DNA from: an uncultured Alphaproteobacteria bacterium
Lineage (GTDB): Bacteria; Pseudomonadota; Alphaproteobacteria; VGEJ01
Direction: 5' to 3'
DNA: 64,000 nucleotides
Assembly (NCBI GenBank): GCA_913041535.1
Contig: CAJWJK010000002.1
Coordinates: 138,793-202,792, forward strand
In this document: piece after piece, positions 40,129 to 54,807 of the stretch
Layout of the letters: each line of letters starts with the position of its first letter
Numbering within the stretch: position 1 is the stretch's first letter
Made by a program: the position numbers and the translations under genes
The notes under the pieces: model-generated
What the model saw: the letters and a program-made list of their open reading frames with translations, nothing else
What the model was told of the DNA's origin: nothing
Database searches by the model: none

Positions 40129-40130
40129 TT

Positions 40131-41282
40131 TTAAGAAGGACGAGACAAACTCTCGTAGACTTTCTGATACATTTCGACAACGTTATTAATAGAGTAGTGT
40201 TCGGTGGCCCGTTGTCGCGCTAATCTTCCCAGGTGGTTCTGATTTTTGCGGATTTTCTCAAGTAGTTTTAGGCAGGCGTTTGCCATGAGTTTAGGGTCCC
40301 TGGGGGGGACTGAAAACCCAGTTGTATCCACGATTTGTCGAGAATCGCCAACGTCAGTAGTAACGCAAGGTACCCCAGATGCCATTGCTTCAACTAGTAC
40401 ATTTGGAAAGGCCTCTCCGTGCGAGGATGCGACAGCAACGATGTCCAATGCAGACATTATCTTGGGCATATCATTTCGGATGCCAAGTAGGGAGACTCGA
40501 TCTTCAAGGTGGTATTTATATACCCAATCCTTCAGTTGTTGGTTTTTAAAAGAGATGTTTTCCCCACAAAAGAGATAACGCACGCTATCGTGCTGTCGGG
40601 ACATAATTTCTGCTGAGCTAAGAAAACCTTCGTGATCTTTCTGTGAGTGAAAACGCCCAATTAATCCTATCAGTGGCTGTTCAGGCCCTATGCCAAGTTG
40701 AAGGCGCATACGTTCTCTAGAAGCTAGGTCAGGTTTAAACTTCTCTATATCTACACCGTTAGGAATTATTTTAAACTTGTTAGACGGGTAACCAAGTTCT
40801 ACATGAATGTCTCGCGCAGTTTCTGAATTACATATGATCTTTTGTGGTACCCAACGGGATAGTAATGCACAAGTCCGTGCAGTGAGTATGGTGCTGCGCT
40901 TATCAGTCTTGGGGTTTAAATCAGCATGTCGGATATTCCAAACTATATTGTTCTGGCGTGCTAAGCGGCCAGCTATACCCCCAACGAGATCCGCGTGATA
41001 TAGCCATGTTTGTACCACATCGGGTTTTTGTTTTCTGATGTGGTTTACTAGTTTACTTACGCTTAATGCGGCGGCGGGACCGTGGCTCATATTTAAGGCA
41101 TTCACTGACATTCCTAGTTCTTGAAACCTTCTTCCTAATGTATTGAGGTCGTTTAAAGAGGTAACGCTCTGCTGGTATTTGAAAGGATCAAGGCGCTCGA
41201 GAAGATGAGAGAGCATCGTTTGGGCGCCGCCAATTGGGAGGCCGGTAATGACGTGATGAATTTTTTGGGGCCTTAAGCGCAT
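40131..41282 (-). CDS. Glycosyltransferase family 4 (GT-B)
   Basis: 383 aa. The C-terminal EAFPNVLVEAMASGVPCVTTDVG is an E-x7-E-like GT4 motif. Confidence 0.8.
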   Translation of the reverse strand: MRLRPQKIHHVITGLPIGGAQTMLSHLLERLDPFKYQQSVTSLNDLNTLGRRFQELGMSVNALNMSHGPAAALSVSKLVNHIRKQKPDVVQTWLYHADLVGGIAGRLARQNNIVWNIRHADLNPKTDKRSTILTARTCALLSRWVPQKIICNSETARDIHVELGYPSNKFKIIPNGVDIEKFKPDLASRERMRLQLGIGPEQPLIGLIGRFHSQKDHEGFLSSAEIMSRQHDSVRYLFCGENISFKNQQLKDWVYKYHLEDRVSLLGIRNDMPKIMSALDIVAVASSHGEAFPNVLVEAMASGVPCVTTDVGDSRQIVDTTGFSVPPRDPKLMANACLKLLEKIRKNQNHLGRLARQRATEHYSINNVVEMYQKVYESLSRPS

Positions 41283-41384
41283 TGGCGAACCGTTTGTATG
41301 TTTGTCTGGTTGAGTAATTTAACTATATTGGCACTCTGTAGATTGTTTGTTAATGCATACTTTGGAGGTTACTACCGTTATACC

Positions 41385-42347
41385 ATGCAGCGCTCAAATC
41401 CCAACCTAGGAAGTCAGCCGGTTGAACAGGTCGTTCGTGCTGACGATGTAATAGACCTAAGGTACCTGTTCAGAAGCTGGTGGAGGGGAAGCTGGTTTAT
41501 TATTTTAGCTGCGTTGGCAGGCTTGGCGGTCGGTCTATGGGAGATGACGAAATTTCAACCTATGTATACTGCAGTTATGTTGGTATCTCCGGCTGGTGGA
41601 ACTGACGGAGGTGGTCCCGATTTAAGCGGATTAAAAAGTTTTGCGGCGGTTTTTGGAGTTGGCGGTAGCAGCGGGACCGAAGGTGGTACGGGTAGCTCGT
41701 TCGATCGTTTCGAAGTCCTTCTTGGATCTGTAATTTTGGCTGAACGGCTGCAAGAACGGTATGGTTTGCTCCAGACTGTGTACCGAGGTGCGTGGGATCC
41801 TGATGCACAGGACTGGATCCGGCCGTCGGGCACGCGGTTTGAGCGGAATGAGGCGTTGAGAGAATTCTTCAAGCTTCGAACGTGGAAGGCGCCCAGTATC
41901 TCGTCTCTTGCCCGGTTTATAGGATCAACTGTAAGAGTTGTCACACTTCAGGCAAATGGATTCCGTCAAGTCTCTGTTGTGCATGAGGATCCTCAGTTTG
42001 CAGAGTATTTATTGAGAACTGTCTATTATGAAGCAGATGAGCTTTTACGTGAGCTAGACCAAGAGAGTACGAGGACCCAGAAGCAATACCTTGAGAATAA
42101 AATAGCGACTAGCAAGATCGTTGAGATTCGTACCGGCCTAGTAGGCCTACTGATGCAACAAGAGAATAAGGCAATGCTTTTGCAAAGTGATGCGCCATAC
42201 GCCGCATACATCATTCAGCCGATTAGCGTAGGTAACAGGCCAACGGCGCCAAGCCCGCGGATGTATGCAGGAGCAGGTGTTGCGGTCGGGGCATTTATAG
42301 GACTTTTAGTTGTTTCATTCATATCGATGTTTCGTCGCGAGACTTAA
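41385..42347 (+). CDS. Wzz-like polysaccharide co-polymerase / chain-length determinant (PCP without a kinase domain)
   Basis: The N-terminus IDLRYLFRSWWRGSWFIILAALAGLAVGLW is the Wzz motif plus TM1. A coiled periplasmic region follows. The C-terminus is Pro-rich and carries TM2 (PISVGNRPTAPSP...GVAVGAFIGLLVVSFI). An alternative start is the TTG at 41298. Confidence 0.55.
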   Translation: MQRSNPNLGSQPVEQVVRADDVIDLRYLFRSWWRGSWFIILAALAGLAVGLWEMTKFQPMYTAVMLVSPAGGTDGGGPDLSGLKSFAAVFGVGGSSGTEGGTGSSFDRFEVLLGSVILAERLQERYGLLQTVYRGAWDPDAQDWIRPSGTRFERNEALREFFKLRTWKAPSISSLARFIGSTVRVVTLQANGFRQVSVVHEDPQFAEYLLRTVYYEADELLRELDQESTRTQKQYLENKIATSKIVEIRTGLVGLLMQQENKAMLLQSDAPYAAYIIQPISVGNRPTAPSPRMYAGAGVAVGAFIGLLVVSFISMFRRET

Positions 42348-42371
42348 GGTGACGGTCTACTGGTCCACCCC

Positions 42372-43484
42372 ATGACCTTTAGTTGGAGTATCTTCTTTGT
42401 TTTTCTTTTTCTGTATCGCTGCTTTGTATCCATCATTGCACAATCATCAGTGCAAGAGCTCGGTGATGCTAGTCTGTATCAGCGTGGCGGACGAACTGTG
42501 GGATCAGGGTTTTCGGCCTTGCTTTACGAGGGTCAATCCTTCAATGTGTCAGCCTTTCGGCACATAGGAACGCATGTTACTGAATCGATAGGTACTTTAT
42601 TAAGTATAGCCGGTGGTGGTAATGCGTACCTCACCAATTTGGGTTTTCAAACAATAGCGTTTGTGGGCTTGGTTAAACTGTTGATGTCAGTCGAGCCAAG
42701 CATTCGTCGTTGGTTAGCTCTCGTTTTGATTCTGCCGTCATTTAACTTCTGGACATCAATAGCTTCGAAAGAGGCATTGGTGACGCTCTGCATTTGCATG
42801 ATACTCGCGAACTATGTTCGTATGCAAAAACTTCAGAAGGTTAGAATTATTTCATTAGCAATATTCTCTATCCTTCTCGCTCTTTTGAAACCTCACTATT
42901 TTATTGCCGTAGCTTATCTTTTCGGCGCGACAGTCTTAGCACAAAGGTTTCGGCAGCGTGGAGTTGTGGCTTTATCTGCTGCAGTGATGTCTTTAGCCAT
43001 GTTATACCCAATTGCTACGTTTTTAGATAAGCAAGCTCGCGTAATTGCTACCCACTTCAGAGTTAGTGATAATACTCTTACTAGAGAAATCTATTTTGTA
43101 CATGAGCTGGATATCCTTTTTAAGGCGCCATACGGAATGTTTCAAAGTTTCTTTGGTCCAACAGTGTCCGAGGCTGTTTCAGGTACTCTCGCGATGATGT
43201 CTTTCATCGAAAGCTTATTTCTTGTGGGACTTCTGTTGATGATGATATTGCATCGATTTTGGGATATTCGAGCATTTGAAGCAATTATTGGCTCCGTTAC
43301 GTTGTTTTGGATTTTATTTGTCACTTATCCATTTGGGATTATGAATCCTGGTTCAGCGGTGAGGTACCGGTCGGGGTATCTAGTGCTAGTAGTGTTTGTG
43401 GTTATTTTTGTCTTTGTCCGAGGATTCAATGAGCGTGAAAAGACCACGAGGAGTAGCATGAAAACACCTGCTCTTGCTGAGTGA
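42372..43484 (+). CDS. Polytopic membrane protein, candidate polysaccharide polymerase (Wzy/EpsG-like)
   Basis: 370 aa with about 9 or 10 predicted transmembrane segments. It has no nucleotide-binding motif. It lies between the Wzz-like gene and the glycosyltransferases. The assignment is by context only. Confidence 0.35.
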   Translation: MTFSWSIFFVFLFLYRCFVSIIAQSSVQELGDASLYQRGGRTVGSGFSALLYEGQSFNVSAFRHIGTHVTESIGTLLSIAGGGNAYLTNLGFQTIAFVGLVKLLMSVEPSIRRWLALVLILPSFNFWTSIASKEALVTLCICMILANYVRMQKLQKVRIISLAIFSILLALLKPHYFIAVAYLFGATVLAQRFRQRGVVALSAAVMSLAMLYPIATFLDKQARVIATHFRVSDNTLTREIYFVHELDILFKAPYGMFQSFFGPTVSEAVSGTLAMMSFIESLFLVGLLLMMILHRFWDIRAFEAIIGSVTLFWILFVTYPFGIMNPGSAVRYRSGYLVLVVFVVIFVFVRGFNEREKTTRSSMKTPALAE

Positions 43485-43525
43485 TAGATGACGTGTAACT
43501 CCTAGTCTGTGGGCATTGGTGCATT

Positions 43526-44284
43526 GTGTCAGTAGAAAGTATTTTAAAAAACGCTTTTCGTCCTGGTTATTTTCCAGTGTTAACGACGAAGATATGGACG
43601 CGGATTGTAGAGGTTCGTCTGCATCATGACAGAGTTAGGGCGAAGACGTGGTGCCATGAAAATGCAGTGGACGTTACAACATTTACAACCATAAAGGATC
43701 CTAATCTTTGGAAGGAGAGTCTTGAGTATGCATCTGTCCTAGGCAGTGAAGCGGAAATAAAGCTGCGACACCTTGATGTTGAACTTGGCGGTGGGGGGTT
43801 TGTAGAACTTGTATACTTTCTTACGCGTCTTTTGCGTCCAACAATCATAGTTGAGACGGGAGTCGCAGCCGGATTCACTACCCAAGTGATACTCGAGGCT
43901 CTATCCCGTAACGGTAGTGGCTATCTATATAGTAGCGATTTTCCTTATTTTCGACTAAGAGATCCAGAAAAGTATATTGGGGTATTAGTGGATGACTCAT
44001 TAAAGAGTCGATGGGAATTGCTTACAAGGGGAGATAGGGAGAATTTGAAAAATATCACTGAACATATCGATCATATTGATATATTTCACTATGATTCCGA
44101 TAAGTCTTATCGCGGTAGAGCTATTGCCCTTGACATAGTCAAAAACTATCTGAAACCAGGAAGTGTACTAATCATGGATGATATTGATGACAATCTCTAT
44201 TTTCGTGATTTCGTTTACCATCTAAAGTGTAAGTACTACGTTTTTCCATGCAAACAGAAGTACGTAGGACTGGCGTTTATCTAG
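43526..44284 (+). CDS. Class I SAM-dependent O-methyltransferase (TylF/Methyltransf_24-like)
   Basis: IVETGVAAGFTT is motif I. FHYDSDKSYRG...GSVLIMDDI resembles the FIDADHSY...DD pattern of sugar O-methyltransferases. Confidence 0.5.
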   Translation: MSVESILKNAFRPGYFPVLTTKIWTRIVEVRLHHDRVRAKTWCHENAVDVTTFTTIKDPNLWKESLEYASVLGSEAEIKLRHLDVELGGGGFVELVYFLTRLLRPTIIVETGVAAGFTTQVILEALSRNGSGYLYSSDFPYFRLRDPEKYIGVLVDDSLKSRWELLTRGDRENLKNITEHIDHIDIFHYDSDKSYRGRAIALDIVKNYLKPGSVLIMDDIDDNLYFRDFVYHLKCKYYVFPCKQKYVGLAFI

Positions 44285-44317
44285 AATGCGGTGTGAACAT
44301 CCTGCCGTGCATATTAG

Positions 44318-45397
44318 ATGAGGATTCGGGTGGTTTTCATACTTCCGTCGTATGCAGGAGGCGGAGCACAAAGGGTGTTGCTAACGCTTCTATCTGGTCT
44401 AGATAGAGACATATTTGAGCCTGTTCTGATAGTATTAAAAGACGAAGGTCCCTTGGTCGACCTGTGTCCTGCTGAGGTGACTACTGTGGTGATTGGTCGT
44501 CATCGTGCGCGTACGGCCGCGGTTGCACTTCTTGGAGTGCTAAGGCGTTTAAAACCAGCAGTCGTATTTTCAACCTTTAGTCATATAAATGTATTGATTC
44601 TCCTGATGCGACCAGCATTATTTGGATGCCCACGAATTGTTGTTCGAGAGCCTAACACTCCGTCGGAGAGTCTGCCACGTCAGGCTTACGGCAGACTTCT
44701 GAGTCTAGGGTACAGAGTACTCTATCGTCATGCAGATCGCGTAATTTGTCCTTCAGACCGTATCGCTAAAGAGATAGAGGAGGTGTTTAGTGTGCCTAGC
44801 AGGCGGGTTGTTCGACTATGCAATCCTGTCGATATTATTACGGTTCGTAGCCGAATCGCTGGGCCCATCGAAACATCTAATAACGGTTACACCTTTGTTG
44901 GGGCTGGCCAATTAATTCCGCAGAAGGGCTTTGAACGTTTGATATCTCTATTTGCTCAAATGCCGGAGAATACTACGTTGATAATATTGGGTGAGGGGCC
45001 CATGGATAGAGAGTTAAAACGGTTAATTGAAGGTTTACGGTTAAATAGCCGTGTGCAACTACTCGGTTTTCAATCGTGTCCCTGGCCTTTTTATGCCAGA
45101 GCAGACGCATTTCTTTTGCCTTCTCGTTGGGAAGGAATGCCAAATGTGGCATTGGAGGCTCTAGCATGTGGAACACCGGTTATTGCAACCCCCGAATCGG
45201 GCGGAATAGAGGAATTGAAAGATAAAGCTGTTAAAGGTGCAGTCAGTATCGCAAGTTTTGAACAGGATTTTCTTCATGCTATGATTGAATGTACGGCGAG
45301 GCCGCGTATGGCACTTCCACGCCCATCCTTGTTGCCAAATGAATATTGCATGTCACACGTTTTGAATAGGTTTTCCGATATCCTTACGATACCGTAA
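44318..45397 (+). CDS. Glycosyltransferase family 4
   Basis: PSRWEGMPNVALEALACGTPVIAT is the GT4 E-x7-E region. The N-terminus is Gly-rich (GGGAQRV). Confidence 0.8.
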   Translation: MRIRVVFILPSYAGGGAQRVLLTLLSGLDRDIFEPVLIVLKDEGPLVDLCPAEVTTVVIGRHRARTAAVALLGVLRRLKPAVVFSTFSHINVLILLMRPALFGCPRIVVREPNTPSESLPRQAYGRLLSLGYRVLYRHADRVICPSDRIAKEIEEVFSVPSRRVVRLCNPVDIITVRSRIAGPIETSNNGYTFVGAGQLIPQKGFERLISLFAQMPENTTLIILGEGPMDRELKRLIEGLRLNSRVQLLGFQSCPWPFYARADAFLLPSRWEGMPNVALEALACGTPVIATPESGGIEELKDKAVKGAVSIASFEQDFLHAMIECTARPRMALPRPSLLPNEYCMSHVLNRFSDILTIP

Positions 45398-45422
45398 GCG
45401 TGACAGCGAGTTTGGATTCTTT

Positions 45423-46169
45423 ATGATAATTTCTCATAAACATAAGTTCATTTTCATTAAAACCCGAAAGACTGCGGGGACCTCTCTGGAGGTAGCGTTA
45501 TGCAAATATCTTGGTAAGAGTGATATTATTACGCCAATCAGTCCAGAAGATGAAAATACACGTCGTGCCATGGGCTTTATAGCAAGGCAAAACTACAAGA
45601 AATCAATATCAGAGTTCAGAGTAAATGATTTAGTTTATGTGGCGCGTCGTATGCGCAATAGGATGATAGGAAAGCATGGGACATCTTCTGGTGTATGGCC
45701 TTCGCAGTTTTACAATCATATGCCATCGCATCTTGTCCGCGACCAAATAGGCATAGCCATATGGAATCGCTATTACAAATTCTCTATAGAGAGAAACCCT
45801 TGGGATGCAGCAGTATCCCGATACTTTTGGCACTACGGCAATAAGAAGATTTCGCACACAAAGGATAGATTCCGGAATTTCATCCAGAGCGAAATTGGTA
45901 GTCATGTACCAAACTACGATCTTTATAGCATTAATGGAGTGCCAGCGATGGACCTAGTCGTACGGTATGAGGCCCTCTTTTCTGGATTGGAGAAAGTATC
46001 TAGGGTTATTGGATTGTCCGAAAATATTCACGAAGTGATGAAGGAAATAAGGGCAAAAGCACAATTTCGTAGAAACGTTGATTATCGGGAAATGTATGAT
46101 GAGGATAGCAGAATGTTGATTGCCAAACACTTTGCCCGAGAAATATCGTTATTTGGTTATGTATTTTAA
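45423..46169 (+). CDS. Sulfotransferase-family protein (PAPS-dependent, carbohydrate sulfotransferase-like)
   Basis: KFIFIKTRKTAGTSLE is a 5'-PSB-like P-loop. ERNPWDAAVSRYF is a 3'-PB-like R-x-P...S motif. Confidence 0.55.
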   Translation: MIISHKHKFIFIKTRKTAGTSLEVALCKYLGKSDIITPISPEDENTRRAMGFIARQNYKKSISEFRVNDLVYVARRMRNRMIGKHGTSSGVWPSQFYNHMPSHLVRDQIGIAIWNRYYKFSIERNPWDAAVSRYFWHYGNKKISHTKDRFRNFIQSEIGSHVPNYDLYSINGVPAMDLVVRYEALFSGLEKVSRVIGLSENIHEVMKEIRAKAQFRRNVDYREMYDEDSRMLIAKHFAREISLFGYVF

Positions 46170-46174
46170 CGGCC

Positions 46175-47311
46175 TTAACGTTGGATCAGTGTGTCATAGA
46201 TCGCCTCAATACATTTAACGTGATTTTCTGATGAGTGTTGCTGCTCTAGTAGAGCTCGTTCTTCCTCTGGTACACGAGATTCGCGATTAAGAAGAACCTG
46301 AGTTGCGGTAGCAAATGCGTCAGCATCATCGGGGGCGGCAAGATATCCACGATCATTATTAGTGACGATCTCTTGGTGACCACCAGAGTTCGAGGCGACT
46401 ACAGGTGTTCCACATAACAATGCTTCAATTACGGCGCGCCCATAACCCTCCAACACTGCTGGAGCGAGCAAAACATCAAAGGCTGATAGCCAAGGCTCGA
46501 TAGGATATTTATGGCCAATACAAAATACATTTCTTTCGATACGGAGGCGTTTGGCAAGTAATTGAGCATCAGATAGCTTGCCCCCACGATCATCACCGAC
46601 CATAACGAAAATTATCTTGCTTTGATTCTGTGCTAAAAGGTGTGCCGCCTTGACAAACATCAATGGGCGTTTCTGGTGTGTCATGTTGCCTACGAAACCA
46701 ATTACGGATGCAGGGGGGGCAATGCCAAGGTTATGCAGTAGCTGTGCTTTAGCTTCCTCATGGGGTAGGGATTGATACTTTGCAAAAGGATCAGGCACTA
46801 TAGTTGCACGTCCGTGTCCAGAAGCTGGCAGCGTCTCTCTAACTGTATGAGAGATTGACACAATATGGTTGCTCGCAGAACAAAGGATTTTCCATAAAGG
46901 AGAACCAGATACTACAAGGCGTTGGTGCCAGACAAAACGAGCCGTTGCCAAACGCGTCGGGAACGGCCACGTTAAGTTCATCCTAAGGTCGTTGCTGTGG
47001 ACAATATCAATTTTATTGTCCCGCAAAAACCCGTACAAGGTCGGGGTGGTCCGTGCAATTGATGCAGCAATGTCGACTATTTTGGGTGTTGTTCCTGCAA
47101 AGCACGGAATATTCAGAAATCTATGATTTATGGATTCCTTTGTCAAAAAGTGTCGGAGAGGTCCATCTTTGTGAAGGATAACTATCGGTTCAAATCGTTG
47201 GCGGTCAATATTTTGGATGAGTAGAGCAGCGGAGATATGGCTGCCACCCACTGAATCTCCAACAAAGGGAAAACATATTCTGGTTTTAGGTGGATGACGA
47301 TACTGAGTCAC
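46175..47311 (-). CDS. Glycosyltransferase family 4
   Basis: APAVLEGYGRAVIEALLCGTPVVASNSGG is the GT4 motif. Confidence 0.8.
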   Translation of the reverse strand: MTQYRHPPKTRICFPFVGDSVGGSHISAALLIQNIDRQRFEPIVILHKDGPLRHFLTKESINHRFLNIPCFAGTTPKIVDIAASIARTTPTLYGFLRDNKIDIVHSNDLRMNLTWPFPTRLATARFVWHQRLVVSGSPLWKILCSASNHIVSISHTVRETLPASGHGRATIVPDPFAKYQSLPHEEAKAQLLHNLGIAPPASVIGFVGNMTHQKRPLMFVKAAHLLAQNQSKIIFVMVGDDRGGKLSDAQLLAKRLRIERNVFCIGHKYPIEPWLSAFDVLLAPAVLEGYGRAVIEALLCGTPVVASNSGGHQEIVTNNDRGYLAAPDDADAFATATQVLLNRESRVPEEERALLEQQHSSENHVKCIEAIYDTLIQR

Positions 47312-47364
47312 GGTCTTCTAGCTCAAATGTTATTGGCTGTTCGGTTGCTATACGGAACTAGTGC

Positions 47365-48054
47365 TTAGGGATGCCGCCGCCAAGCGGAAACTAGGAAGAG
47401 AGGCAAGCGCCACGGTCCTTGTGTAGCATAAACACAGGCCAAGTGTTTATGTGCCAAGGTGCTGATTCTGTAAATATCCGTCGTATGATAGTCACCATGA
47501 AAGCCCGAAACATAGCGACCAAGCTTATAAAGATGATTTTCGGTGGGACCAGATAAAATAAGTATCCCCCCAGGTTTTAGTGATTGGCATAAGCATTCAA
47601 TAATAGTCTCTGGGTCCTCGTTGTGTTCTAAGCAGTCGAGAGCGAATACGATATCATAGCAGTCCTTTTTGGCACCAATATTCTTGACTAAATTGGCGTC
47701 AGGCACTAACTCGCAAAGAGCTTTTGCTATTTCGTTATCTTCTTCTGCAGCATGGTAATACGAGTTTTCCGGCAACAAATGGCGCAGTTCACCGCAACCA
47801 GCGCCAAAATCAAGTATCTTTACCGGATTACCAAAACGGGTGGCTAGTCTAACTGCTGCAAACAAACGCCACCAAGCAGCATATGCGGCAAGCCAGTTAC
47901 CATGACAGTATGATGGAACGCAAGTTTCTTCGAGAGCAGAAAATTGTACTTTTAGATTGAAGTGACTCTTTAACAGCTTTCGCCTTTGCAGAATGTGATG
48001 AATCTGAGTTGGGGTACTAAACAACTGGTTGTGGGTAGTGTGAGCCTGAGACAT
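47365..48054 (-). CDS. Class I SAM-dependent methyltransferase
   Basis: ILDFGAGCGEL is motif I. A downstream acidic motif II is present (VFALDCLEH). Confidence 0.65.
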   Translation of the reverse strand: MSQAHTTHNQLFSTPTQIHHILQRRKLLKSHFNLKVQFSALEETCVPSYCHGNWLAAYAAWWRLFAAVRLATRFGNPVKILDFGAGCGELRHLLPENSYYHAAEEDNEIAKALCELVPDANLVKNIGAKKDCYDIVFALDCLEHNEDPETIIECLCQSLKPGGILILSGPTENHLYKLGRYVSGFHGDYHTTDIYRISTLAHKHLACVYATQGPWRLPLFLVSAWRRHP

Positions 48055-48096
48055 TATCGTGGAAGGAATATCTGTTTTGGAACGGTTGATTGTGTA

Positions 48097-50013
48097 ATGC
48101 AGAAAATCTTTACGGCTGCAATGGGGCGAACCGGGACCAATAACTTGGCTGTATTATTTAACAAGTTCGGCCAGGGGTGCATAGCAGAACATGAGCCTCC
48201 GGCTCTACTACTCCAACAACTCCAGGAGCAACCGTTCTTTGATCGATATCCAAGTCTTCGTCCTAAGGAGAGATTGGCACAAGTGGGGCGAGATCTGCAA
48301 CGGCGTTACATTGTCACTGACGAGATGCTTGGGCGCGGGCGGGCACTAAACTGGTATGATTCTGGCGACACGGATAAACTGCTTAAATTGGTGAATTGGA
48401 GGCTTCGACGGATCGACCGCTTTTCAAAACGTGGTTACAAACACTACGTTGAGTCGAGTCAGTTCTTTTTGCGTACGTACTGTTATCAAGTGCACAATGT
48501 TATACCTCACGTCGGTGTAATTAAGTTAGTACGGGATCCGCTTGAAACGGCTCGAAGTTCAGCAAATCGTAAGAAAGCCTTGTTTCAGAATAACTTACCG
48601 CCGGATTGTAGAAGTAATCATTTTCGCATCAAAGAATGGCAGGATCTAACGCCATTTCAACATTATGTTCATACATGGATAGAGACTGAGGTACGGTGGG
48701 AGGAATTTGTTAAATCGACAGACCTTAAGAGATTTTTCGTCATTGAAACACGGGATCTTAGCAATAGTGAGCGGATAACCGAAATGTTCAAATTTTTTGG
48801 CATTGAACATAGGCCCGTTAAAGATCTCCGTCCGACTAACACAAATACTGAGATATCTCTTCCGGGCACACAGGTTTCTATACGTGACCATGAGGAATTT
48901 ATGAGAGTGGTGGATAAACTTCCTCAGACACTTCGGGACCGGATACCGCAACTGGAACGTTATGTTTCAGATCGAGACGAATCGGCCAGCAGTTTTTCCT
49001 TGCGTCTTGGAGAGGCCCGCAAGAGTCGGCCGGTAATGGGCTCTCCACAACTCGGGCGTCTTATTGCTGATTTTCCAATGACCGCGGTCGATATTGGAGC
49101 ACGTGGTGGCGTAATTCAGGACCTGCTGCCAATTGCTCAGGTGGTTGATGCAGTGGGGTTCGAGCCGGATGAAGAAGAATGTGTCCGTCTTAGCGCAGCG
49201 GCAGCCCTAAAAGAGGGGCCGTGGCGTAGTGAACAGTATCTTCCTGCGGCGCTTTCTGGCAACAGTGGGCCGCGAACACTGTATCTCACGCGTCATCGTG
49301 GGACATCTTCAATGATGAAGCCTATCCCGGGCTTTGGGGAAAGTTACTCTCGACCTGATTACTATTTTATCGAGGGGAAAGTTGAGGTTGATACAATTAC
49401 GCTTGATCAGGCTGTAATAGAACACGAACTAGGTAAACCGGTATATTTAAAACTCGATATTGAGGGGATGGAAAAAGAGGTTATTGAGGCTGCACCATTG
49501 ACCATGAATCATCTTCTTGCAGTCCGCACAGAGGCTGTATTTCTACAGCCAAGAAAAGGTCAGCCGTCGTTTCACGAACTCGATGGTTGTCTACGGAGCT
49601 TTGGTTTTATTCCGATGGGATTTGAGGAAATACACCATTGGCGGCGGTTAAGTCAGGTTAAACCGCCAGAGACTATTCCTGGTCCGGTACCCTACTCGCG
49701 AGGCCAACTTGCGCACTGCGATATGCTTTATCTTAAGGACTTTCAGTTGATGTCTGAAGAGACAGAGGTGGAAATCACGCGCTTAATTCAAATGGCGTTT
49801 ATTGCGCTTTGTTATGACTATGTGGATCACGCCCTAGCAATCTTCTCACTCCCCGCAGTCGAGTCGCTTTTAGTGGGGACTTATGGTATTGATATTAAAA
49901 GAGAAATTAGTATTGTGTCCCATGAGCTACTTGCACGTCACCGTCGGACAAGGAGGCGCAAGTCATGGCTTGGCTTCAGGGGGACAACATCTCGTAGGTT
50001 GCGTCCAACATAG
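48097..50013 (+). CDS. Bifunctional sulfotransferase-domain / FkbM-family methyltransferase fusion protein
   Basis: The N-terminal half has sulfotransferase motifs (MQKIFTAAMGRTGTNNL 5'-PSB, KLVRDPLETARS 3'-PB). The C-terminal half is an FkbM domain (MTAVDIGARGGV...LKLDIEGMEKEVIEAAP). The ATG at 48097 avoids the overlap with the upstream convergent gene that the ORF-track start (47986) creates. Confidence 0.6.
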   Translation: MQKIFTAAMGRTGTNNLAVLFNKFGQGCIAEHEPPALLLQQLQEQPFFDRYPSLRPKERLAQVGRDLQRRYIVTDEMLGRGRALNWYDSGDTDKLLKLVNWRLRRIDRFSKRGYKHYVESSQFFLRTYCYQVHNVIPHVGVIKLVRDPLETARSSANRKKALFQNNLPPDCRSNHFRIKEWQDLTPFQHYVHTWIETEVRWEEFVKSTDLKRFFVIETRDLSNSERITEMFKFFGIEHRPVKDLRPTNTNTEISLPGTQVSIRDHEEFMRVVDKLPQTLRDRIPQLERYVSDRDESASSFSLRLGEARKSRPVMGSPQLGRLIADFPMTAVDIGARGGVIQDLLPIAQVVDAVGFEPDEEECVRLSAAAALKEGPWRSEQYLPAALSGNSGPRTLYLTRHRGTSSMMKPIPGFGESYSRPDYYFIEGKVEVDTITLDQAVIEHELGKPVYLKLDIEGMEKEVIEAAPLTMNHLLAVRTEAVFLQPRKGQPSFHELDGCLRSFGFIPMGFEEIHHWRRLSQVKPPETIPGPVPYSRGQLAHCDMLYLKDFQLMSEETEVEITRLIQMAFIALCYDYVDHALAIFSLPAVESLLVGTYGIDIKREISIVSHELLARHRRTRRRKSWLGFRGTTSRRLRPT

Positions 50014-50122
50014 CTATAGTAATACCGCGCGTTTCTAATAGGTTGGGCATGGGTGGCGATCTGCACATAGCAATCTATGCTGCTGTTGAGGAAACAGTGA
50101 TTCACCCAAAACGCGTCTCTCT

Positions 50123-51022
50123 CTAAAGACAATACCCGTATTCTTTCAGTGGCAAGCCGGTTTTCTCCACTAGTGTGAGATTGCTTTGGCGGTATCGTTC
50201 GCGCAATAGTTTCTGCCATCGGTGGGGAATTTCCAAACGGTGTTTCTGGCCTCGCTTTAGGGAATCAAGAAAATACCTACGCAACAGATTGGGAACATAC
50301 TTTTTTAAGCTGAGGTTTGGGAGAATTACTCTCCGAAGGTGGTTATAGCGCACCTCGTTCAGTGTTCGAGCCACATTTTCACGATCATTACCAATTAATT
50401 GTATTCCTTCCTCAGGCGGTATGCCGAGAGTACAACAGAGTTTACCAATAAACGTCACCGGATCATCTCTGAGCTGTTCGTATAGAAACACGTGAACGCT
50501 ATCAGCTCCAAAAAGTTGTTGGTAACACGAGACTAACTTATCGTATTCCAGGTGGTGTAGCGTTCCATTAACACGATTGTTCCAAGATGCCTCTATCCAA
50601 TTATCAAATGAGGATGGGGTATAGTGTTTGCCTAGCTGCTGCCTATAAAAAGAAGGTAAATAGTCGAGCTGTTCTCGGATACAGACAATGATTGTTGCTT
50701 CTTTTGAGATTTCCTTAAGCCTATTTGCAATTAATCCACGGTCCGCATGTTGGGGGAGACAGAATAGTTCTACAGATACGACAACAATATCACTTTTATT
50801 GAGGTGCTGACCCACGTGTTCGTCATAACCACGTTGGGCTAGTTTGGAGTCGTATTCAAGGGAGTCGCATCCGTAAATTAGAGTTGCCCATTCCTCTACT
50901 TTTCGGGAGCTCCAGGGTTTTCCCACTAGCCTTATCTGGTGGTGACGCGCAAACAGCAGATTCTGTAACGTGGTGGTAGCAGTTTTTGGGTACCCAATAT
51001 GTAAGATCGGCGTTGATGTCAT
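50123..51022 (-). CDS. Sulfotransferase-family protein
   Basis: ILHIGYPKTATTTLQ (5'-PSB) and IREQLDYLPSFY (3'-PB-like). The start is taken at the internal Met (MTSTPIL) at 51022. The ORF-track start is 51061. Confidence 0.6.
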   Translation of the reverse strand: MTSTPILHIGYPKTATTTLQNLLFARHHQIRLVGKPWSSRKVEEWATLIYGCDSLEYDSKLAQRGYDEHVGQHLNKSDIVVVSVELFCLPQHADRGLIANRLKEISKEATIIVCIREQLDYLPSFYRQQLGKHYTPSSFDNWIEASWNNRVNGTLHHLEYDKLVSCYQQLFGADSVHVFLYEQLRDDPVTFIGKLCCTLGIPPEEGIQLIGNDRENVARTLNEVRYNHLRRVILPNLSLKKYVPNLLRRYFLDSLKRGQKHRLEIPHRWQKLLRERYRQSNLTLVEKTGLPLKEYGYCL

Positions 51023-51182
51023 GCGTCTAAAGAAAAGTTGTGAGTGAATCGTGGCAACCACATTCTGACTGACCAGATATTAAGGGACTAGCCAACGAAA
51101 ACCAATCAGTATGGAGATATTAACTGTGTCTACTATACTAAAACGAAAACTTGATGTGCTCACAAATCTGGATGATCGGTAG

Positions 51183-52973
51183 CTAAGGGAGCTTACCAGC
51201 CATCGCTTTAAATGACTCACTATTGCTGACAAGGTACTCGTAACTACCAGTTGCAACTATGCGACCACCTTCAATGATGTGAATAGCATCACTAAATTGA
51301 ACGGTATGAAGACGGTGTGCGATAGTAACGGTTGTTATTGTACCGGCTAAATCTCTAATAGTTTCAGTGACGATACTTTCAGTCACATTGTCCAGTGAAC
51401 TCGTAGCTTCATCCAGAACTAGAAGCTGCGGTCGGCGGTAGAGTGCACGGGCAATGGCTAGGCGTTGCAATTGTCCGCCACTGAAACGAACACCGCTCTC
51501 ACCGAGTCGTGTGTCATAACCATCTGGTAGGTCCCCAACAATAAAATCATGGATATGCGCTTTCTTTGCTGCTTCAATAACTGAACTGGTATCAATCTCA
51601 TCATAGGAGACAGCAAAAGCAATGTTCTGTGTGATACTATCGTCGAGGTAATGTACGTGCTGGGGCACATAAGCTACTTGTTGCTGCCATGCCCGAAGAT
51701 TTTCGTGTGTGAGAATCACATCATCTATAAGGACCTTTCCATTTGTGGGTACCAATAACCCCATTATGGTTTCGACCAGCGTAGATTTCCCTGCGCCCGT
51801 CGCTCCCACAAAGGCTATGCTGCTGCCTTTTTCGACAACTAAACTAATGTTATCGATAACATCTGTGTCTTCGCTGGGATAGTGGTATGACACTTGGTCA
51901 AGGGTAATCTCTTTAAAGAAAGGCAGGGGTGGAGGAGGTTGCTGATCGGTAGTAACGGGCGCTGTAGCTGCGCTACTAAATTCTTCCACCAAACTTTTTG
52001 CCACGGCATAAGATGTCCGCATTTGACTAATCGATTGGAATAGTTGGGAGAGAAGTGGGATTAGCCTATACCCAGCCATCGCGAATAAGGCAATAATTGC
52101 AATGCTATCTGACGAGCGGCCCTCTGAATCTAAGGTCGATAGCACCACCGCTAGCAGCCCTACAAACACGACTGTTTCGATCAGGTAGCGAGGTAGCTGC
52201 GCAATCAAGACTTTGCCAATTCCGATACGCGACAATCGTTTAGCAGCCATCCAAAAAAGGTTGGAGAAGTAATTTTCCCCGCCTTGAAGTTTAAGTTCCT
52301 TAATACCTCTAAATGCCTCATCTGTAGTCCGAAATGCTTGCTCCGTGGCAATGCGACCCTGATGACCTAACCAGGTTGAACGATAGCGAATCAATAAATA
52401 GATACAGACGTAGATGCTTCCTAAGCTTAGTACTGCAAGTCCTGTTACCATGGGTTCTTGCCATAGGAGAAACGCCAATATTGCAATTACGGTCAAGGCG
52501 TTTGAGAACACCATGATACCAGCAACCAAGTAACCAGATGTGAGCTGGGCTACCTCCACTAGGAGATTCTTGCGAAGTTCCCCTGTGTTGAGGGTAAGAA
52601 ACGCCTCATAACGTTGTTCTAGATAATGGCGCATACGTCGGTACGACAGGCGGTGTATCATCGTCTGTGCAAAATAGGTGCGAAAAAACAATGATGCTGC
52701 ACCTACAATATTTCGGAAAATGATCACAAAAATTAGTCCCAACCCGCTGTATGTTAGAAAATCTGTGTCACTCGAACTCCCCAAAGTTTCGCGGGCCTGC
52801 GATAATATTTGCGAACTACTTATTAGTGATGGATCTGCAACAATGCGGACGTAGGCGACAATTGAGCCGATGCCTGCCACTTCAGCAGCCGATAAGACAA
52901 TTGCCAAAAATAGAACCCATATAGCTAGCCAACGGTCCTGTCTTGATAATATTTTAAGGAGTTTTACTAACAA
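51183..52973 (-). CDS. ABC exporter with a fused permease and ATPase (MsbA/PglK/NdvA-like type I exporter)
   Basis: 596 aa with a six-helix N-terminal transmembrane domain. The nucleotide-binding domain carries Walker A GATGAGKST, signature FSGGQLQR and Walker B LLVLDEATS. Confidence 0.85.
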   Translation of the reverse strand: MLVKLLKILSRQDRWLAIWVLFLAIVLSAAEVAGIGSIVAYVRIVADPSLISSSQILSQARETLGSSSDTDFLTYSGLGLIFVIIFRNIVGAASLFFRTYFAQTMIHRLSYRRMRHYLEQRYEAFLTLNTGELRKNLLVEVAQLTSGYLVAGIMVFSNALTVIAILAFLLWQEPMVTGLAVLSLGSIYVCIYLLIRYRSTWLGHQGRIATEQAFRTTDEAFRGIKELKLQGGENYFSNLFWMAAKRLSRIGIGKVLIAQLPRYLIETVVFVGLLAVVLSTLDSEGRSSDSIAIIALFAMAGYRLIPLLSQLFQSISQMRTSYAVAKSLVEEFSSAATAPVTTDQQPPPPLPFFKEITLDQVSYHYPSEDTDVIDNISLVVEKGSSIAFVGATGAGKSTLVETIMGLLVPTNGKVLIDDVILTHENLRAWQQQVAYVPQHVHYLDDSITQNIAFAVSYDEIDTSSVIEAAKKAHIHDFIVGDLPDGYDTRLGESGVRFSGGQLQRLAIARALYRRPQLLVLDEATSSLDNVTESIVTETIRDLAGTITTVTIAHRLHTVQFSDAIHIIEGGRIVATGSYEYLVSNSESFKAMAGKLP

Positions 52974-52994
52974 AGCCGGGTATTTATTTCATTT

Positions 52995-54098
52995 TCAGTA
53001 AAGTGATTGCCAAGCTTGCGGAGGTGGTTGTTTGGGTGTTATGAGCTCCAGTCCTTCAGTGCACATAAACTTTCCCAGCATCAACATCTTGTTTTGTAGA
53101 CTCGGCAAAGAGAGGATAGCGCTCAACGCCACATGTCGTGACACTGTGCGCAGTTCATAGCCGAATCTCTCTGCCGTATTACCAGAGATTGAGCTAATGA
53201 TTGATAGTTCTCGTTCGTCCAGCTGATCGCTCCAGCGCGTCATGGGAACCTTGCTAATTCCTCCATAGCTCTCGTCTCTGCTATTTGTAGCACCTCCACT
53301 AATGGTTTGAAGTAGCGCTTCCAATTGATCGTTTCTAAGACCATCCCCTACCATGAATGTGTACAGACGATTTAGTTCTGCACAGGGGTCCTGTACAAAG
53401 TCTTCATAACGAACCCAGGTCACAGATCCAGGATTCTGAGATGTGAACCGAAGCATCATAAGTGTTGTAAAGCGCCAATAGAGACTCATTTGTATGATAT
53501 CGGTAAGGGTATTTTCAGTTGTATCGGATCGCTGTTTCCGTCGAGCGTTGCGTCGTGCATTGGACAAGATCACCGATCGGGGGTCGCGAACGACAAATAC
53601 AAAGCGCGCCATGGGCAGAGAACGTCGTATTGTAAGTAAACCACGCCAATTATTGGCCTTATCGATCCAACACTCTAACGAAGGCAACTCTTTATCAAAG
53701 TTGTTACTGAGGGAGTAGAAGAGTGGGTAAAGCTTATACAGTTCAGAAAAGCTTTTTCGCTTTAAGGCTCCTGCATAGCGACGACCAAGAGAGTTTGGTT
53801 CAAATTCATCCTTGCCTCTTATTAGATCCCGTGGGGGAAAGTAACGTGGGGCACACAAAAGGGTTCGCCACGTTCGTTCGTCTACGCGGTTTCTATATTT
53901 CCAGACACGATTTACAAAGTATGTTTCTCCTGGAAGGCTCATAGCCCGAGGATGGAGGCCAAGAGAGCGAAAAATCACAGAAGTTCCGCTACGCGTTGGA
54001 CCCATCAGATATACTAGGCGAGAAAGCATTTCGTCGCTCGGTTCTACGAGCGAGGCTGAATTAGTTTGTATCGTGGTTTGGGTGGTATCTTTAATCAT
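52995..54098 (-). CDS. Sulfotransferase-family protein
   Basis: LMGPTRSGTSVIF (5'-PSB PxxSGTT-like) and FVFVVRDPRSVILS (3'-PB RDP...S). Confidence 0.65.
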   Translation of the reverse strand: MIKDTTQTTIQTNSASLVEPSDEMLSRLVYLMGPTRSGTSVIFRSLGLHPRAMSLPGETYFVNRVWKYRNRVDERTWRTLLCAPRYFPPRDLIRGKDEFEPNSLGRRYAGALKRKSFSELYKLYPLFYSLSNNFDKELPSLECWIDKANNWRGLLTIRRSLPMARFVFVVRDPRSVILSNARRNARRKQRSDTTENTLTDIIQMSLYWRFTTLMMLRFTSQNPGSVTWVRYEDFVQDPCAELNRLYTFMVGDGLRNDQLEALLQTISGGATNSRDESYGGISKVPMTRWSDQLDERELSIISSISGNTAERFGYELRTVSRHVALSAILSLPSLQNKMLMLGKFMCTEGLELITPKQPPPQAWQSLY

Positions 54099-54799: not shown

Positions 54800-54807
54800 C
54801 GTACAGT

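Follow-up and report, generated by a model that had tools for sequence, protein, structure and literature searches.

A probable surface-glycan locus with four sulfotransferase-like domains, one of them fused to an FkbM-family methyltransferase

Introduction

Surface-glycan loci with several sulfotransferase genes have been described in marine bacteria. In marine Vibrio sp. KMM 8419, the CPS/O-antigen locus encodes three sulfotransferases together with yjbFGH (PMC11641403), the CPS locus of Cobetia marina KMM 1449 is a further example (PMC11766843), and co-occurrence of PAPS genes with sulfotransferase genes is described as the hallmark of such clusters (PMC11641403). In Synechocystis PCC 6803, the xss cluster for synechan encodes two sulfotransferases, and its sulfated product has been verified experimentally (PMC8205485). 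An initial sequence-only reading of the locus described here had called multi-sulfotransferase glycan clusters rare, which these reports show to be an overstatement, since two or three sulfotransferases per cluster have been reported before in marine bacteria.

The present locus resembles the Vibrio and Cobetia loci in that several sulfotransferase genes of a marine heterotroph lie within a large surface-glycan locus with ABC-transporter export, and it has yjbFGH in common with the Vibrio locus; marine sulfated capsule loci likewise bring together yjbFGH, more than one sulfotransferase and export by an ABC transporter (PMC11641403). However, the Vibrio and Cobetia loci use KpsMT/KpsDE (ABC-2 type) export, whereas this one encodes a PglK/MsbA-type half-transporter. 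PAPS genes (cysNDC/cysQ) are also present in those loci, and the chemistry of their products has been solved; here, no cysD, cysN, cysC or cysQ was found within the 64-kb stretch of DNA analyzed (the window). What sets this locus apart is its four sulfotransferase domains, its three or four methyltransferases and its sulfotransferase-methyltransferase fusion. It shares with xss the make-up of an EPS-type cluster, in which sulfotransferases of different subfamilies accompany glycosyltransferases (many in xss), a PCP and an OPX protein. In contrast, xss is Wzx/Wzy-dependent, lies on a cyanobacterial megaplasmid, includes the XssS/R/Q regulators and has no methyltransferases; in place of Wzx and Wzy, this locus encodes a GT-C enzyme and an exporter of the ABC type.

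Two further systems bear on the fusion. NodH is a rhizobial Nod-factor sulfotransferase and NoeI an FkbM-family 2-O-methyltransferase, and in rhizobia a sulfotransferase and an FkbM-type methyltransferase decorate one sugar to give 2-O-methyl-3-O-sulfo-fucose. A comparable pairing of a PAPS-dependent sulfotransferase with an FkbM-type methyltransferase, known from these alphaproteobacteria, is predicted for this locus. NoeE is cited as a rhizobial Nod-factor sulfotransferase (PMC4659905, citing Hanin 1997), and the RxG PAPS loop of NodH resembles those of ST367 and the ST-like domain described below (PMC11625862). In the Nod-factor case, however, the products of separate genes act on a lipochitooligosaccharide, and the likeness to the fusion is one of functional logic only. 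The second system is WbdD, a kinase-methyltransferase that terminates chains in E. coli O9a. Like the fusion, it is bifunctional, with a group-transfer domain of P-loop-related type and a SAM methyltransferase in one protein, and its gene lies beside that of an ABC-pathway exporter, but WbdD has a kinase domain, a coiled-coil ruler and a Wzm/Wzt partner whereas the fusion has a sulfotransferase domain, and the likeness is of architecture only.

Results

The sequence-only reading had proposed a polysaccharide locus that combines GT4 glycosyltransferases and a PglK/MsbA-like exporter with four sulfotransferase domains and several methyltransferases, and our analysis supports this core. As shown in Table 1, three GT4 genes and three methyltransferase genes (Methyltransf_24, class I and FkbM) were confirmed at their assigned positions; the Methyltransf_24 and FkbM assignments held in the HMM check, the latter exceeding both the PF05050 and TIGR01444 cutoffs. 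The claim that a same-strand sulfotransferase flanks the ABC exporter on each side was borne out by Sulfotransfer_1/3 and Sulfotransfer_3 matches. We consider this to be very probably a chromosomal surface-glycan locus (capsule, EPS or O-antigen-like) of an uncultured marine planktonic bacterium, itself probably an alphaproteobacterium, and from the encoded families its product is likely a sulfated and methylated (O or N) surface glycan.

Table 1. Features of the locus and its flanks, with positions in the window
Feature	Position	Strand	Evidence
Small Ala/Gly/Thr-rich secreted protein, possibly YjbE-like	33153..33500	+	ORF and composition
YjbF/GfcB-like lipoprotein	33585..34322	-	PF11102 157.6 bits
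Outer-membrane polysaccharide export protein	34275..37163	+	PF10531, PF22461, PF02563, PF06251
YjbH/GfcD-like outer-membrane protein	37150..40128	+	PF06082 687.9 bits
GT4 glycosyltransferase a (GT4a)	40131..41282	-	Glycos_transf_1 93.5 bits, Glyco_transf_4 63.9 bits
PCP (Wzz/KpsE)-like protein	41298..42347	+	PF02706 24.9 bits (cutoff 25.5)
Polytopic membrane protein, GT-C fold	42372..43484	+	Previously read as 'Wzy-like'
Methyltransf_24 (TylF-superfamily) SAM methyltransferase	43526..44284	+	PF13578 48.2 bits
GT4 glycosyltransferase b (GT4b)	44318..45397	+	Glycos_transf_1 100.5 bits
Sulfotransferase 1 (ST248), Sulfotransfer_2-type, soluble	45423..46169	+	PF03567 21.0 bits, E 4e-4
GT4 glycosyltransferase c (GT4c)	46175..47311	-	Glycos_transf_1 99.8 bits
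Class I SAM methyltransferase	47365..48054	-	Methyltransf_23 39.3 bits, Methyltransf_11 28.6 bits
Sulfotransferase 2, ST-like N-terminal domain of 638-aa fusion	48097..48966	+	Sulfotransfer_3 17.2 bits (cutoff 27)
FkbM-family SAM methyltransferase domain, C-terminal half of fusion	49030..50013	+	PF05050 45.9 bits, TIGR01444 47.8 bits
Sulfotransferase 3 (ST312), Sulfotransfer_1/3-type	50123..51061	-	PF00685 41.3 bits, PF13469 34.9 bits
ABC half-transporter (TMD+NBD), PglK/MsbA/HepA-like	51183..52973	-	ABC_membrane 58.6 bits, ABC_tran 103.8 bits
Sulfotransferase 4 (ST367), Sulfotransfer_3-type	52995..54098	-	PF13469 74.6 bits
PIG-L family de-N-acetylase	54107..54862	-	PF02585 80.5 bits; BshB-like
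Class III aminotransferase, glutamate-1-semialdehyde (GSA) aminomutase-like	54808..56103	-	PF00202 168 bits
Sugar-tailoring and CMP-sugar module	56403..63943	.	Profile matches

Profile matches place YjbF, a Wza/SLBB/GfcC fusion (one Poly_export domain of Wza type and five of SLBB type, with GfcC at the C-terminus) and YjbH on the 5' side. The 3' neighbors are the PIG-L protein, the class III aminotransferase (NF004856 395.6 bits, under the cutoff of 486) and the CMP-sugar module, which contains a formyltransferase, a CTP_transf_3 cytidylyltransferase, an aldo-keto reductase, a metallo-beta-lactamase-fold protein, a second Methyltransf_24/TylF methyltransferase, an ATP-grasp ligase, a PhyH dioxygenase and leuA, and extends beyond the end of the window, where NeuB and a soluble 629-aa protein are encoded. 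The small secreted protein at the left border of the glycan island had no match in a Pfam search and is possibly YjbE-like, because its position adjoins yjbF.

Neither an initiating phosphoglycosyltransferase nor Wzx, Wzy, WaaL or a polyprenyl-phosphate sugar synthase was found within the window, and therefore the assembly route as seen is incomplete and a Wzy-dependent route lacks support. The gene previously called 'Wzy-like' was rejected as such: its product has a GT-C glycosyltransferase fold, not the Wzy fold. Its closest counterparts are the GT-C glycosyltransferases (ALG12, Pmt, AftB, ArnT, PimE), but it has neither a family match at the sequence level nor a large periplasmic domain, and Foldseek gave no confirmation of the GT-C match. 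It is probably a periplasmic glycosyltransferase with a lipid-linked sugar donor. The 'Wzz-like' assignment of its neighbor proved marginal, with a PF02706 score just under the cutoff and two transmembrane segments (64-86 and 321-347) around a periplasmic domain; no kinase domain is present, and the gene is also kept in the related loci L026 and L035.

The ABC protein (596 aa, TMD and NBD only) has the half-transporter architecture of PglK (C. jejuni), Wzk (H. pylori), MsbA and HepA. PglK (5c73) is its best PDB half-transporter, aligning end to end (1-572 versus 1-560, E 1.8e-72), and PglK also leads in NCBIfam (316 bits), closely followed by MsbA (280 bits) and HepA (274 bits), each under its equivalog cutoff (1000 bits for PglK). 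It is presumed to be a flippase or exporter of lipid-linked glycan. Such a flippase, the GT4 enzymes and the GT-C protein might instead produce a short lipid-linked oligosaccharide for protein glycosylation or for lipooligosaccharide/glycolipid decoration, not capsule or EPS. The nearest named relatives (PglK for the ABC protein, PglJ/PglH for GT4b) point in this direction, as do the failure to find a polymerase in the window and the inclusion of oligosaccharyltransferases and lipid A or protein modifiers in the GT-C class. We regard this as quite unlikely: the block abuts YjbF, the Wza/GfcC fusion and YjbH and holds a PCP-like gene, all polysaccharide-export components; L035 keeps YjbH and the PCP-like gene in matching positions; the GT-C protein, at only 370 aa, has no counterpart of the large domain that PglB/AglB-type oligosaccharyltransferases carry in the periplasm; and the PglJ, PglH and PglK scores are all far under the equivalog cutoffs (PglJ, the best named relative of GT4b, NF050063 106.7 bits against 500).

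PSB- and PB-like motifs had been claimed for four sulfotransferase domains. The motifs are present in all four, but only ST312 and ST367 reach the Pfam gathering score; ST248 falls below its cutoff of 22 bits and the ST-like domain well below its own. The motifs, PSB first and PB second, are KTRKTAGTS (13-21) and ERNPWDAAVS (123-132) in ST248, PKTATTT (25-31) and IREQLDYLPS (128-137) in ST312, and TRSGTS (35-40) and VRDPRSVILS (170-179) in ST367, which has a weak likeness to TPST. ST248 has 2595 homologs, most of the 120 listed carrying PF03567, with K16, G19, T20, R124 and S132 invariant and a dN/dS of 0.15. The PAPS-loop Lys/Arg and the PB serine, which define the family in a review of polysaccharide sulfotransferases (PMC11625862), are kept in every domain (4/4), and none of the four has a transmembrane segment, so that all are soluble. 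From these residues, all four domains look functional.

ST367 adjoins PIG-L, and it is conceivable that PIG-L removes an N-acetyl group and ST367 then N-sulfates the freed amine, giving an N-sulfated amino sugar. In animal heparan-sulfate NDST, the two halves carry out just such de-N-acetylation and N-sulfation. PIG-L adjoins the ST367 ortholog in the window, L026, L035 and L025, and enzymes of the PIG-L family, among which BshB and MshB are the closest named matches in this case, de-N-acetylate GlcNAc derivatives. However, L038 has no PIG-L homolog beside its ST367 ortholog, the nearby formyltransferase and ATP-grasp ligase represent ordinary uses of a freed amine (re-acylation), and ST367 resembles TPST/Sulfotransfer_3 enzymes, not NDST specifically. 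We judge this reading very unlikely.

The fusion starts in public gene calls at the ATG at 48097, giving exactly the 638-aa product. Its ST-like half belongs to a small family that has no Pfam model, in which R11/G13 and R146/P148/S154 are invariant among 31 members. An AEHEPP motif ~20 residues past the PAPS loop is also invariant, at what we take to be the position of the catalytic Glu in TPST. Profile-profile comparison with the other two sulfotransferase families tested gave no significant similarity, the short PB and PSB motifs alone aligning. Some sulfotransferase-fold proteins, for example this ST-like one, could, like the sulfotransferase domains of CurM/OLS, install sulfate as a transient leaving group, or could bind a nucleotide without transfer, and the family does lack a characterized member as well as a Pfam model. 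Against this, the PAPS-loop Arg/Gly, the PB Arg/Ser and AEHEPP are all invariant and the genomic context is glycan genes each time and PKS genes never, which makes it highly improbable that such proteins are not glycan sulfotransferases.

The ST-like and FkbM domains are fused in the window, L026, L025 (protein P0003) and P0002 (known as a protein only). FkbM is a separate gene directly 3' of the ST-like gene in L035, where its start overlaps the ST-like stop, and in L038, P0132 and P0133; in these four, a gene for an ABC exporter with identical domain architecture is at most three genes away from the ST-like gene. The P0139 locus has the ST-like gene beside a non-homologous class I methyltransferase and another sulfotransferase. 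Given fusion here and adjacency elsewhere, we read ST-like/FkbM as a pair that may share a residue or substrate at the membrane.

Alternatively, the glycan would be polymerized in the cytoplasm (Wzk-/ABC-transporter-dependent style) and ST-like/FkbM, as a WbdD analogue, would cap its non-reducing end with sulfate and methyl, fixing chain length and licensing export via the adjacent ABC transporter. This would fit a window without Wzx or Wzy in which the supposed Wzy is GT-C-like, the retention of the ST-like/methyltransferase pairing in divergent loci, usually no more than three genes from a PglK-like ABC gene, the two-domain layout parallel to WbdD (P-loop-related fold plus SAM methyltransferase), and the conserved basic C-terminal tail of the FkbM half, expected of a membrane-associated enzyme. 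We nevertheless consider it unlikely. The ABC protein lacks an extra Wzt-type carbohydrate-binding domain for reading a cap, the PCP-like protein and the periplasmic GT-C enzyme suggest post-export processing, and three other sulfotransferases and two other methyltransferases point to decoration of repeat units, not a single cap; we know of no precedent for a sulfate-plus-methyl cap.

The whole block is syntenic in L026 (72-95% amino acid identity) and L035 (52-70%); GT4a shows 95% identity to L026, over the portion present there, and 53% to L035. A cassette of GT4c, ST-like, FkbM, ST312, ABC and ST367 recurs at 43-57% identity in L038, which is more distant than L026 and L035 and whose contig carries a protein that NCBI names as from an Alphaproteobacteria MAG. 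ST312 is found in L026 and L038 and is missing from L035. GT4c homologs adjoin an ST-like gene in L038 (43%), L042 and L044, and an FkbM gene in L001 (38%), which has no ST-like gene. All 11 genes compared are under purifying selection (dN/dS 0.08-0.28). Horizontal acquisition had been suggested from low GC. A modest dip does exist at 42400-46200 (43.2% versus 47.8% upstream), but there is none at 48000-51000 (46.6%), and the suggestion is weak, as locus and housekeeping genes overlap in GC3 and the locus is conserved in relatives. By these comparisons, the locus is conserved across a lineage and is not an obvious recent island.

Discussion

Taken together, we favor, as reasonably probable, the following account, each step of which is drawn from family membership. 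Three cytoplasmic GT4 enzymes would assemble a glycan on undecaprenyl diphosphate, and this glycan probably contains a tailored nonulosonic acid supplied by the adjacent CMP-sugar module. While it faces the cytoplasm, up to four soluble PAPS-dependent sulfotransferases would add sulfate and three SAM methyltransferases would add methyl groups, the fused ST-like/FkbM pair acting on one residue or substrate at the membrane. The PglK/MsbA/HepA-like half-transporter would carry the lipid-linked product over the inner membrane, and on the periplasmic side the GT-C-fold enzyme may extend the glycan or link units from a lipid-linked donor. Passage through the outer membrane would be via the PCP-like protein, the Wza/GfcC fusion and YjbF/YjbH. 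Points that weigh against this account are the lack of cysD, cysN, cysC and cysQ in the window, the incomplete assembly route seen there, the two sulfotransferase domains under the Pfam gathering score, the lack of significant profile similarity between the ST-like family and the two others compared, and the low score of the ABC protein relative to the PglK cutoff. Beyond the published clusters, the ST-like domain would represent an unannotated sulfotransferase family, here fused to a methyltransferase.

Gene organization of the locus

An ORF map combined with Pfam and NCBIfam scans reproduced almost exactly the gene list compiled in the sequence-only reading, whose observation is largely right and whose interpretation is partly supported. 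Judged from gene content, it is reasonably probable that the locus makes a sulfated and methylated surface glycan by a route that would combine cytoplasmic assembly, an ABC exporter, a GT-C enzyme and PCP-OPX-Yjb export.

Features of the glycan locus and its surroundings (positions in the window)
Feature	Position	Strand	Basis or remark
Tandem glycine riboswitch	25208-25408		two RF00504 aptamers
Outer-membrane export protein	34275-37163		Wza/SLBB/GfcC fusion
YjbH	37150-40128		PF06082
GT4 glycosyltransferase	40131-41282	-	ORF map, Pfam/NCBIfam
Putative Wzz-like protein	41298-42347		topology
Probable GT-C-fold enzyme	42372-43484		predicted model
Methyltransf_24 enzyme	43526-44284		Pfam/NCBIfam scan
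GT4 glycosyltransferase	44318-45397	+	ORF map, Pfam/NCBIfam
ST248, predicted sulfotransferase	45423-46169		family membership, motifs
GT4 glycosyltransferase	46175-47311	-	ORF map, Pfam/NCBIfam
Class I methyltransferase	47365-48054		Pfam/NCBIfam scan
638-aa fusion protein, ST-like plus FkbM	48097-50013		start ATG 48097; C-terminal half FkbM methyltransferase
ST312, Sulfotransfer_1/3 protein	50123-51061	-	Pfam
ABC_membrane plus ABC_tran half-transporter	51183-52973	-	Pfam
ST367, Sulfotransfer_3 protein	52995-54098	-	74.6 bits
LeuA-type gene	62945-63943		part of a gene cut by the window end

On the 5' side the glycan genes are preceded by a possible YjbE-like ORF, YjbF, a 962-aa Wza/SLBB/GfcC fusion and YjbH; YjbF, the GfcC/YjbG domain, YjbH and the OPX component of a Yjb/Gfc (group 4 capsule-type) export module are thus all there (PF11102, PF06251/PF02563/SLBB and PF06082). 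The outer-membrane export protein carries Wza-like Poly_export and SLBB domains, with GfcC/YjbG at its C-terminus. YjbH, at 992 aa, is longer than usual, and the Pfam model matches two stretches of it; yjbF is encoded on the strand opposite to wza, with a 48-nt overlap at the wza start. The 3' side holds genes for a PIG-L protein, an aminotransferase of class III, a formyltransferase and a cytidylyltransferase of the CTP_transf_3 family, together with other tailoring genes. Housekeeping genes, among them the cox operon and gcvT/gcvP, lie farther 5' and place the locus on the chromosome. Upstream of gcvT we also noted a tandem glycine riboswitch (67.2 and 34.9 bits), an ordinary feature; because its second aptamer overlaps the TTG at which the gcvT ORF is listed to begin (25365), the true gcvT start is probably further downstream.

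A promoter and terminator scan of 39900-56500 gave a signal no richer than that in shuffled sequences. Horizontal acquisition had been proposed from low GC, and we rejected this argument as weak: GC content is 43.2% at 42400-46200 and 46.6% at 48000-51000 against 47.8% upstream, and GC3 overlaps that of the housekeeping genes.

Four predicted sulfotransferase domains

The four sulfotransferase domains recognized from the sequence were retained, on evidence that differs from one to the next. HMM matches identified two of them. ST367 scored 74.6 bits with PF13469 (cutoff 27) and contains the PAPS-binding motifs TRSGTS (PSB, residues 35-40) and VRDPRSVILS (PB, 170-179); ST312 scored 41.3 bits with PF00685 (cutoff 22) and 34.9 bits with PF13469 (cutoff 27), with PKTATTT (PSB, 25-31) and IREQLDYLPS (PB, 128-137). 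The 248-aa ST248 reached 21.0 bits with Sulfotransfer_2 (E 4e-4) against a gathering cutoff of 22, and its assignment relies on family membership and motifs. A search returned 2595 homologs; PF03567 is present in most of the 120 listed, several of which are named "sulfotransferase family 2" by NCBI. Across 37 aligned sequences, K16, G19 and T20 of the PAPS loop and R124 and S132 of the 3'-phosphate motif are invariant.

The fourth, the ST-like domain, takes up the first 290 residues of the fusion protein and scored 17.2 bits with PF13469/Sulfotransfer_3, under the cutoff of 27. Searches of PDB sequences gave nothing significant for ST248, the ST-like domain or the ST-like family profile. When the ST-like family was compared by hhalign with ST367 and the ST248 family, the results were not significant (E 0.14 and 0.31, respectively) and alignment was confined to the PB and PSB motifs; sequence-level homology to either is therefore unproven, and the assignment stands on fold and motifs. 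An AlphaFold model built on 31 family members (mean pLDDT 88.3) predicts a sulfotransferase alpha/beta fold with its PSB Arg and PB Ser. About 20 residues past the PAPS loop the family has an invariant AEHEPP motif, at what we take to be the position of the catalytic glutamate of TPST. Also invariant are R11 and G13 of an RxG PAPS loop, of the kind found in NodH and Stf0 (PMC11625862), and R146, P148 and S154 of an RDPxxxAxS PB motif. A search with the family profile yielded 33 clusters, nearly all of them stand-alone proteins of ~295 aa that lack Pfam matches and are unnamed or called "hypothetical protein". TM segments were found in none of the four domains, all of which we predict to be PAPS-dependent sulfotransferases.

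Association of the ST-like domain with FkbM

The C-terminal half of the fusion protein scored past both cutoffs for an FkbM methyltransferase (PF05050, 45.9 versus 22.7 bits; TIGR01444, 47.8 versus 37.7 bits), and its conserved Arg-rich C-terminal tail would fit a membrane-located enzyme. ST-like and FkbM are fused in the window, in its relative L026, in locus L025 (protein P0003) and in P0002, a family member known as a protein only. They are separate genes in L035, another relative, with the ST-like stop and the FkbM start codon overlapping, and separate but neighbouring in the more distant locus L038 and in the loci of the family members P0132 and P0133. At the locus of a further member, P0139, the ST-like gene has as neighbours a second sulfotransferase gene and a class I methyltransferase of a different kind. 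We read the fusion here of two genes that lie side by side elsewhere as a sulfotransferase and a methyltransferase that would act on the same substrate.

In function, the closest parallel to this pair is rhizobial NoeE and NoeI, of which NoeI methylates the same fucose residue that NoeE sulfates; WbdD, whose cap is phosphate-methyl, is a more speculative analogy for the fusion. NoeE is a rhizobial sulfotransferase of a fucose residue (PMC4659905). In L035, L038 and the P0132 and P0133 loci, the ST-like gene has, at most three genes away, an ABC exporter that shares the domain architecture of the one in the window. It is conceivable, and in our estimate unlikely, that the fusion is a bifunctional chain terminator, which would place a sulfate-plus-methyl cap at the non-reducing end of a glycan polymerised in the cytoplasm. 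If so, the cap would determine how long the chain grows and clear it for export via the adjoining PglK-type ABC transporter, as a sulfate-based counterpart of the WbdD cap in a pathway without Wzx/Wzy or Wzm/Wzt.

When GTDB genomes were scanned with the fusion protein, FkbM-domain relatives only were returned, the best (42%) in a Pelagibius MAG. A 320-aa ORF that separates ABC from FkbM in a Pelagibius locus was considered as an ST-like relative and dropped, the comparison not being significant. In the P0132 and P0133 loci and in L025 (11938-13305), the FkbM gene or domain that follows ST-like is itself followed by a ~440-aa DUF7033 protein, and Asn-synthase-like or carbamoyltransferase genes lie just 5' of the ST-like gene; the window itself lacks DUF7033.

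Conservation and divergence of the locus

Proteins identical to ones encoded in the window occur on a 256,604-bp contig and in assemblies of Tara Oceans and further marine metagenomes. These marine matches, the layout of the cox operon and the presence of relatives in alphaproteobacterial MAGs suggest that the source is probably an alphaproteobacterium. In L026 (GCA_964527465.1) gene order is unchanged from the first GT4 gene to PIG-L, with protein identities of 72-95%, and dN/dS between the window and L026 was 0.08-0.28 in all 11 genes compared. In L035 the order is likewise kept between YjbH and the metallo-beta-lactamase gene (52-70% identity); ST312 is missing there, and an extra Polysacc_deac_1 gene is present. 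L038, whose ST-like protein is assigned by its NCBI name to an Alphaproteobacteria MAG, contains the third GT4, ST-like, FkbM, ST312, ABC and ST367 at 43-57% identity. L025 contains the aminotransferase, PIG-L, an ST367-like gene and the fusion (44-60% identity) beside NeuB and an ATP-grasp gene. That PIG-L and ST367 together perform N-sulfation is, in our judgement, very unlikely.

Synonymous divergence from L026 is uneven. Between Wzz and the fusion (41298-50013) most genes had a dS of 0.29-0.54, with 0.91 for the Methyltransf_24 gene, and for ST312, ABC and ST367 (50123-54098) it was 1.0-1.3; the unevenness suggests recombination or replacement of this right-hand cassette within the locus.

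Membrane proteins and a possible assembly route

The protein encoded at 42372-43484 had been called Wzy-like. We found no Wzy or O-antigen-ligase-type family or fold match for it, nor any match in Pfam or NCBIfam. A full HMMER search gave at least 283 homologs as representatives at the 50% identity level, and the 52 members scanned have no Pfam family in common. In a predicted model built on these homologs (pLDDT 92), the invariant Asp D32 lies in the loop following the first helix, as in GT-C enzymes; R238, G262, P263, E280, N325, G327, R331 and Y332 are likewise invariant. Foldseek against the PDB gave nothing significant (top match WaaL, E 0.15, TM 0.26), which makes a GT-C fold probable rather than certain. 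These proteins may merit a family definition of their own.

For the neighbouring protein described as Wzz-like, the topology agreed, with two TM segments (64-86 and 321-347) around a periplasmic domain, and the HMM match was marginal (PF02706, 24.9 versus 25.5 bits). The top PDB half-transporter for the ABC protein was PglK (5c73), aligned end to end (1-572 versus 1-560, E 1.8e-72). NCBIfam scores were 316 bits for PglK (NF050066), 280 for MsbA and 274 for HepA, all far under the equivalog cutoffs (1000 for PglK); the protein thus resembles an ABCB-type lipid or LLO exporter short of the PglK equivalog level.

No Wzx, Wzy or initiating transferase was found in the window. That the product is not a polymer at all seems to us quite unlikely. 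The most economical route to a glycan, each step of which we infer from family membership, has four parts. Because PAPS and SAM are cytoplasmic and all tailoring enzymes are soluble, the glycan would be assembled and decorated in the cytoplasm on undecaprenyl diphosphate. The ABC protein would then drive translocation over the inner membrane, the GT-C enzyme would act in the periplasm, and export would proceed via the PCP/OPX/Yjb proteins.

Sugar-tailoring genes on the right flank

The locus runs on past the right end of the window with leuA, NeuB, a 629-aa soluble protein without a Pfam match and a GT28-like fragment, and from these genes the glycan probably includes a tailored nonulosonic acid. 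The first 3633 nt of the adjoining stretch L033, past position 64000, hold three genes, among them a NeuB/PseI-like nonulosonic acid synthase. The 629-aa protein, which has no TM segment, is possibly a nonulosonic-acid transferase, and the GT28/PseG-like fragment hints at a pseudaminic-acid-type sugar.

The gene cut by the window end is complete at L033 3687-5288. Listed as HMGL/homocitrate-synthase-like, it scored above the NCBIfam equivalog cutoffs for LeuA, 2-isopropylmalate synthase (679 versus 532 and 641 versus 599 bits). It is placed between NeuB and a PhyH dioxygenase, inside the sugar-tailoring block, and is either a housekeeping leuA in a glycan island or a recruited paralog making an unusual acyl group.

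Comparison with known sulfated-glycan loci

Multiple sulfotransferases in one bacterial glycan cluster had been thought rare; in the light of the literature, such loci are a known kind. The synechan cluster has two sulfotransferases, and its authors held such clusters unknown outside cyanobacteria (PMC8205485). A marine Vibrio locus contains three, along with yjbFGH, a cysNDC set of its own and ABC export of the Kps type, and its sulfated polymer has been solved (PMC11641403); a Cobetia locus was likewise described, later than synechan (PMC11766843). Sulfated polysaccharides have been reported from six bacterial genera, and bacterial polysaccharide sulfotransferases are under-detected by Pfam models (PMC11625862).

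A sulfated-polysaccharide cluster has been defined as one holding both sulfotransferase genes and the PAPS-synthesis genes cysD/N/C (PMC11641403). No cysD, cysN, cysC or cysQ was found among the window ORFs scanned, and the 64-kb window falls outside that definition.

Four features set the present locus apart from the known ones. It has four sulfotransferase domains, each of its own sequence type; these occur together with three or four methyltransferases; one of the domains represents a sulfotransferase family that lacks annotation and is either paired with FkbM or fused to it; and a predicted ABCB-type exporter and GT-C enzyme take the place of Wzx/Wzy or KpsMT.

On Sinorhizobium meliloti pSymB (CP140955.1, 1132420-1153106), a full-length ST248 homolog (27-28% identity), annotated "sulfotransferase family 2", lies directly 3' of an ABC exporter gene, with GT39 (GT-C), KpsF, a pyruvyl transferase and GT4 nearby: a similar ingredient list in a cultured, genetically tractable alphaproteobacterium. 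We did not retain this pair as the same system, similarity in the ABC protein being confined to the nucleotide-binding domain. The characterised msbA2 operon sits elsewhere on pSymB (PMC3687685).

Significance

Bacterial sulfated polysaccharides are wanted as animal-free heparin-like and anticancer materials, and hardly any of the enzymes responsible for their sulfation have been characterised (PMC11625862). Here, a single compact and conserved cassette supplies four different candidates for polysaccharide sulfotransferases, including a family missed entirely by current annotation, whose constant pairing with a methyltransferase gives a testable hypothesis of coupled sulfation and methylation. 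For specialists in glycan assembly, a smaller point is the unusual set that an ABCB-type exporter and a GT-C enzyme would form where Wzx/Wzy might be expected. The locus comes from open-ocean plankton metagenomes and so bears on marine dissolved organic matter, to which abundant marine bacteria might add sulfated, methylated and hence degradation-resistant glycans.
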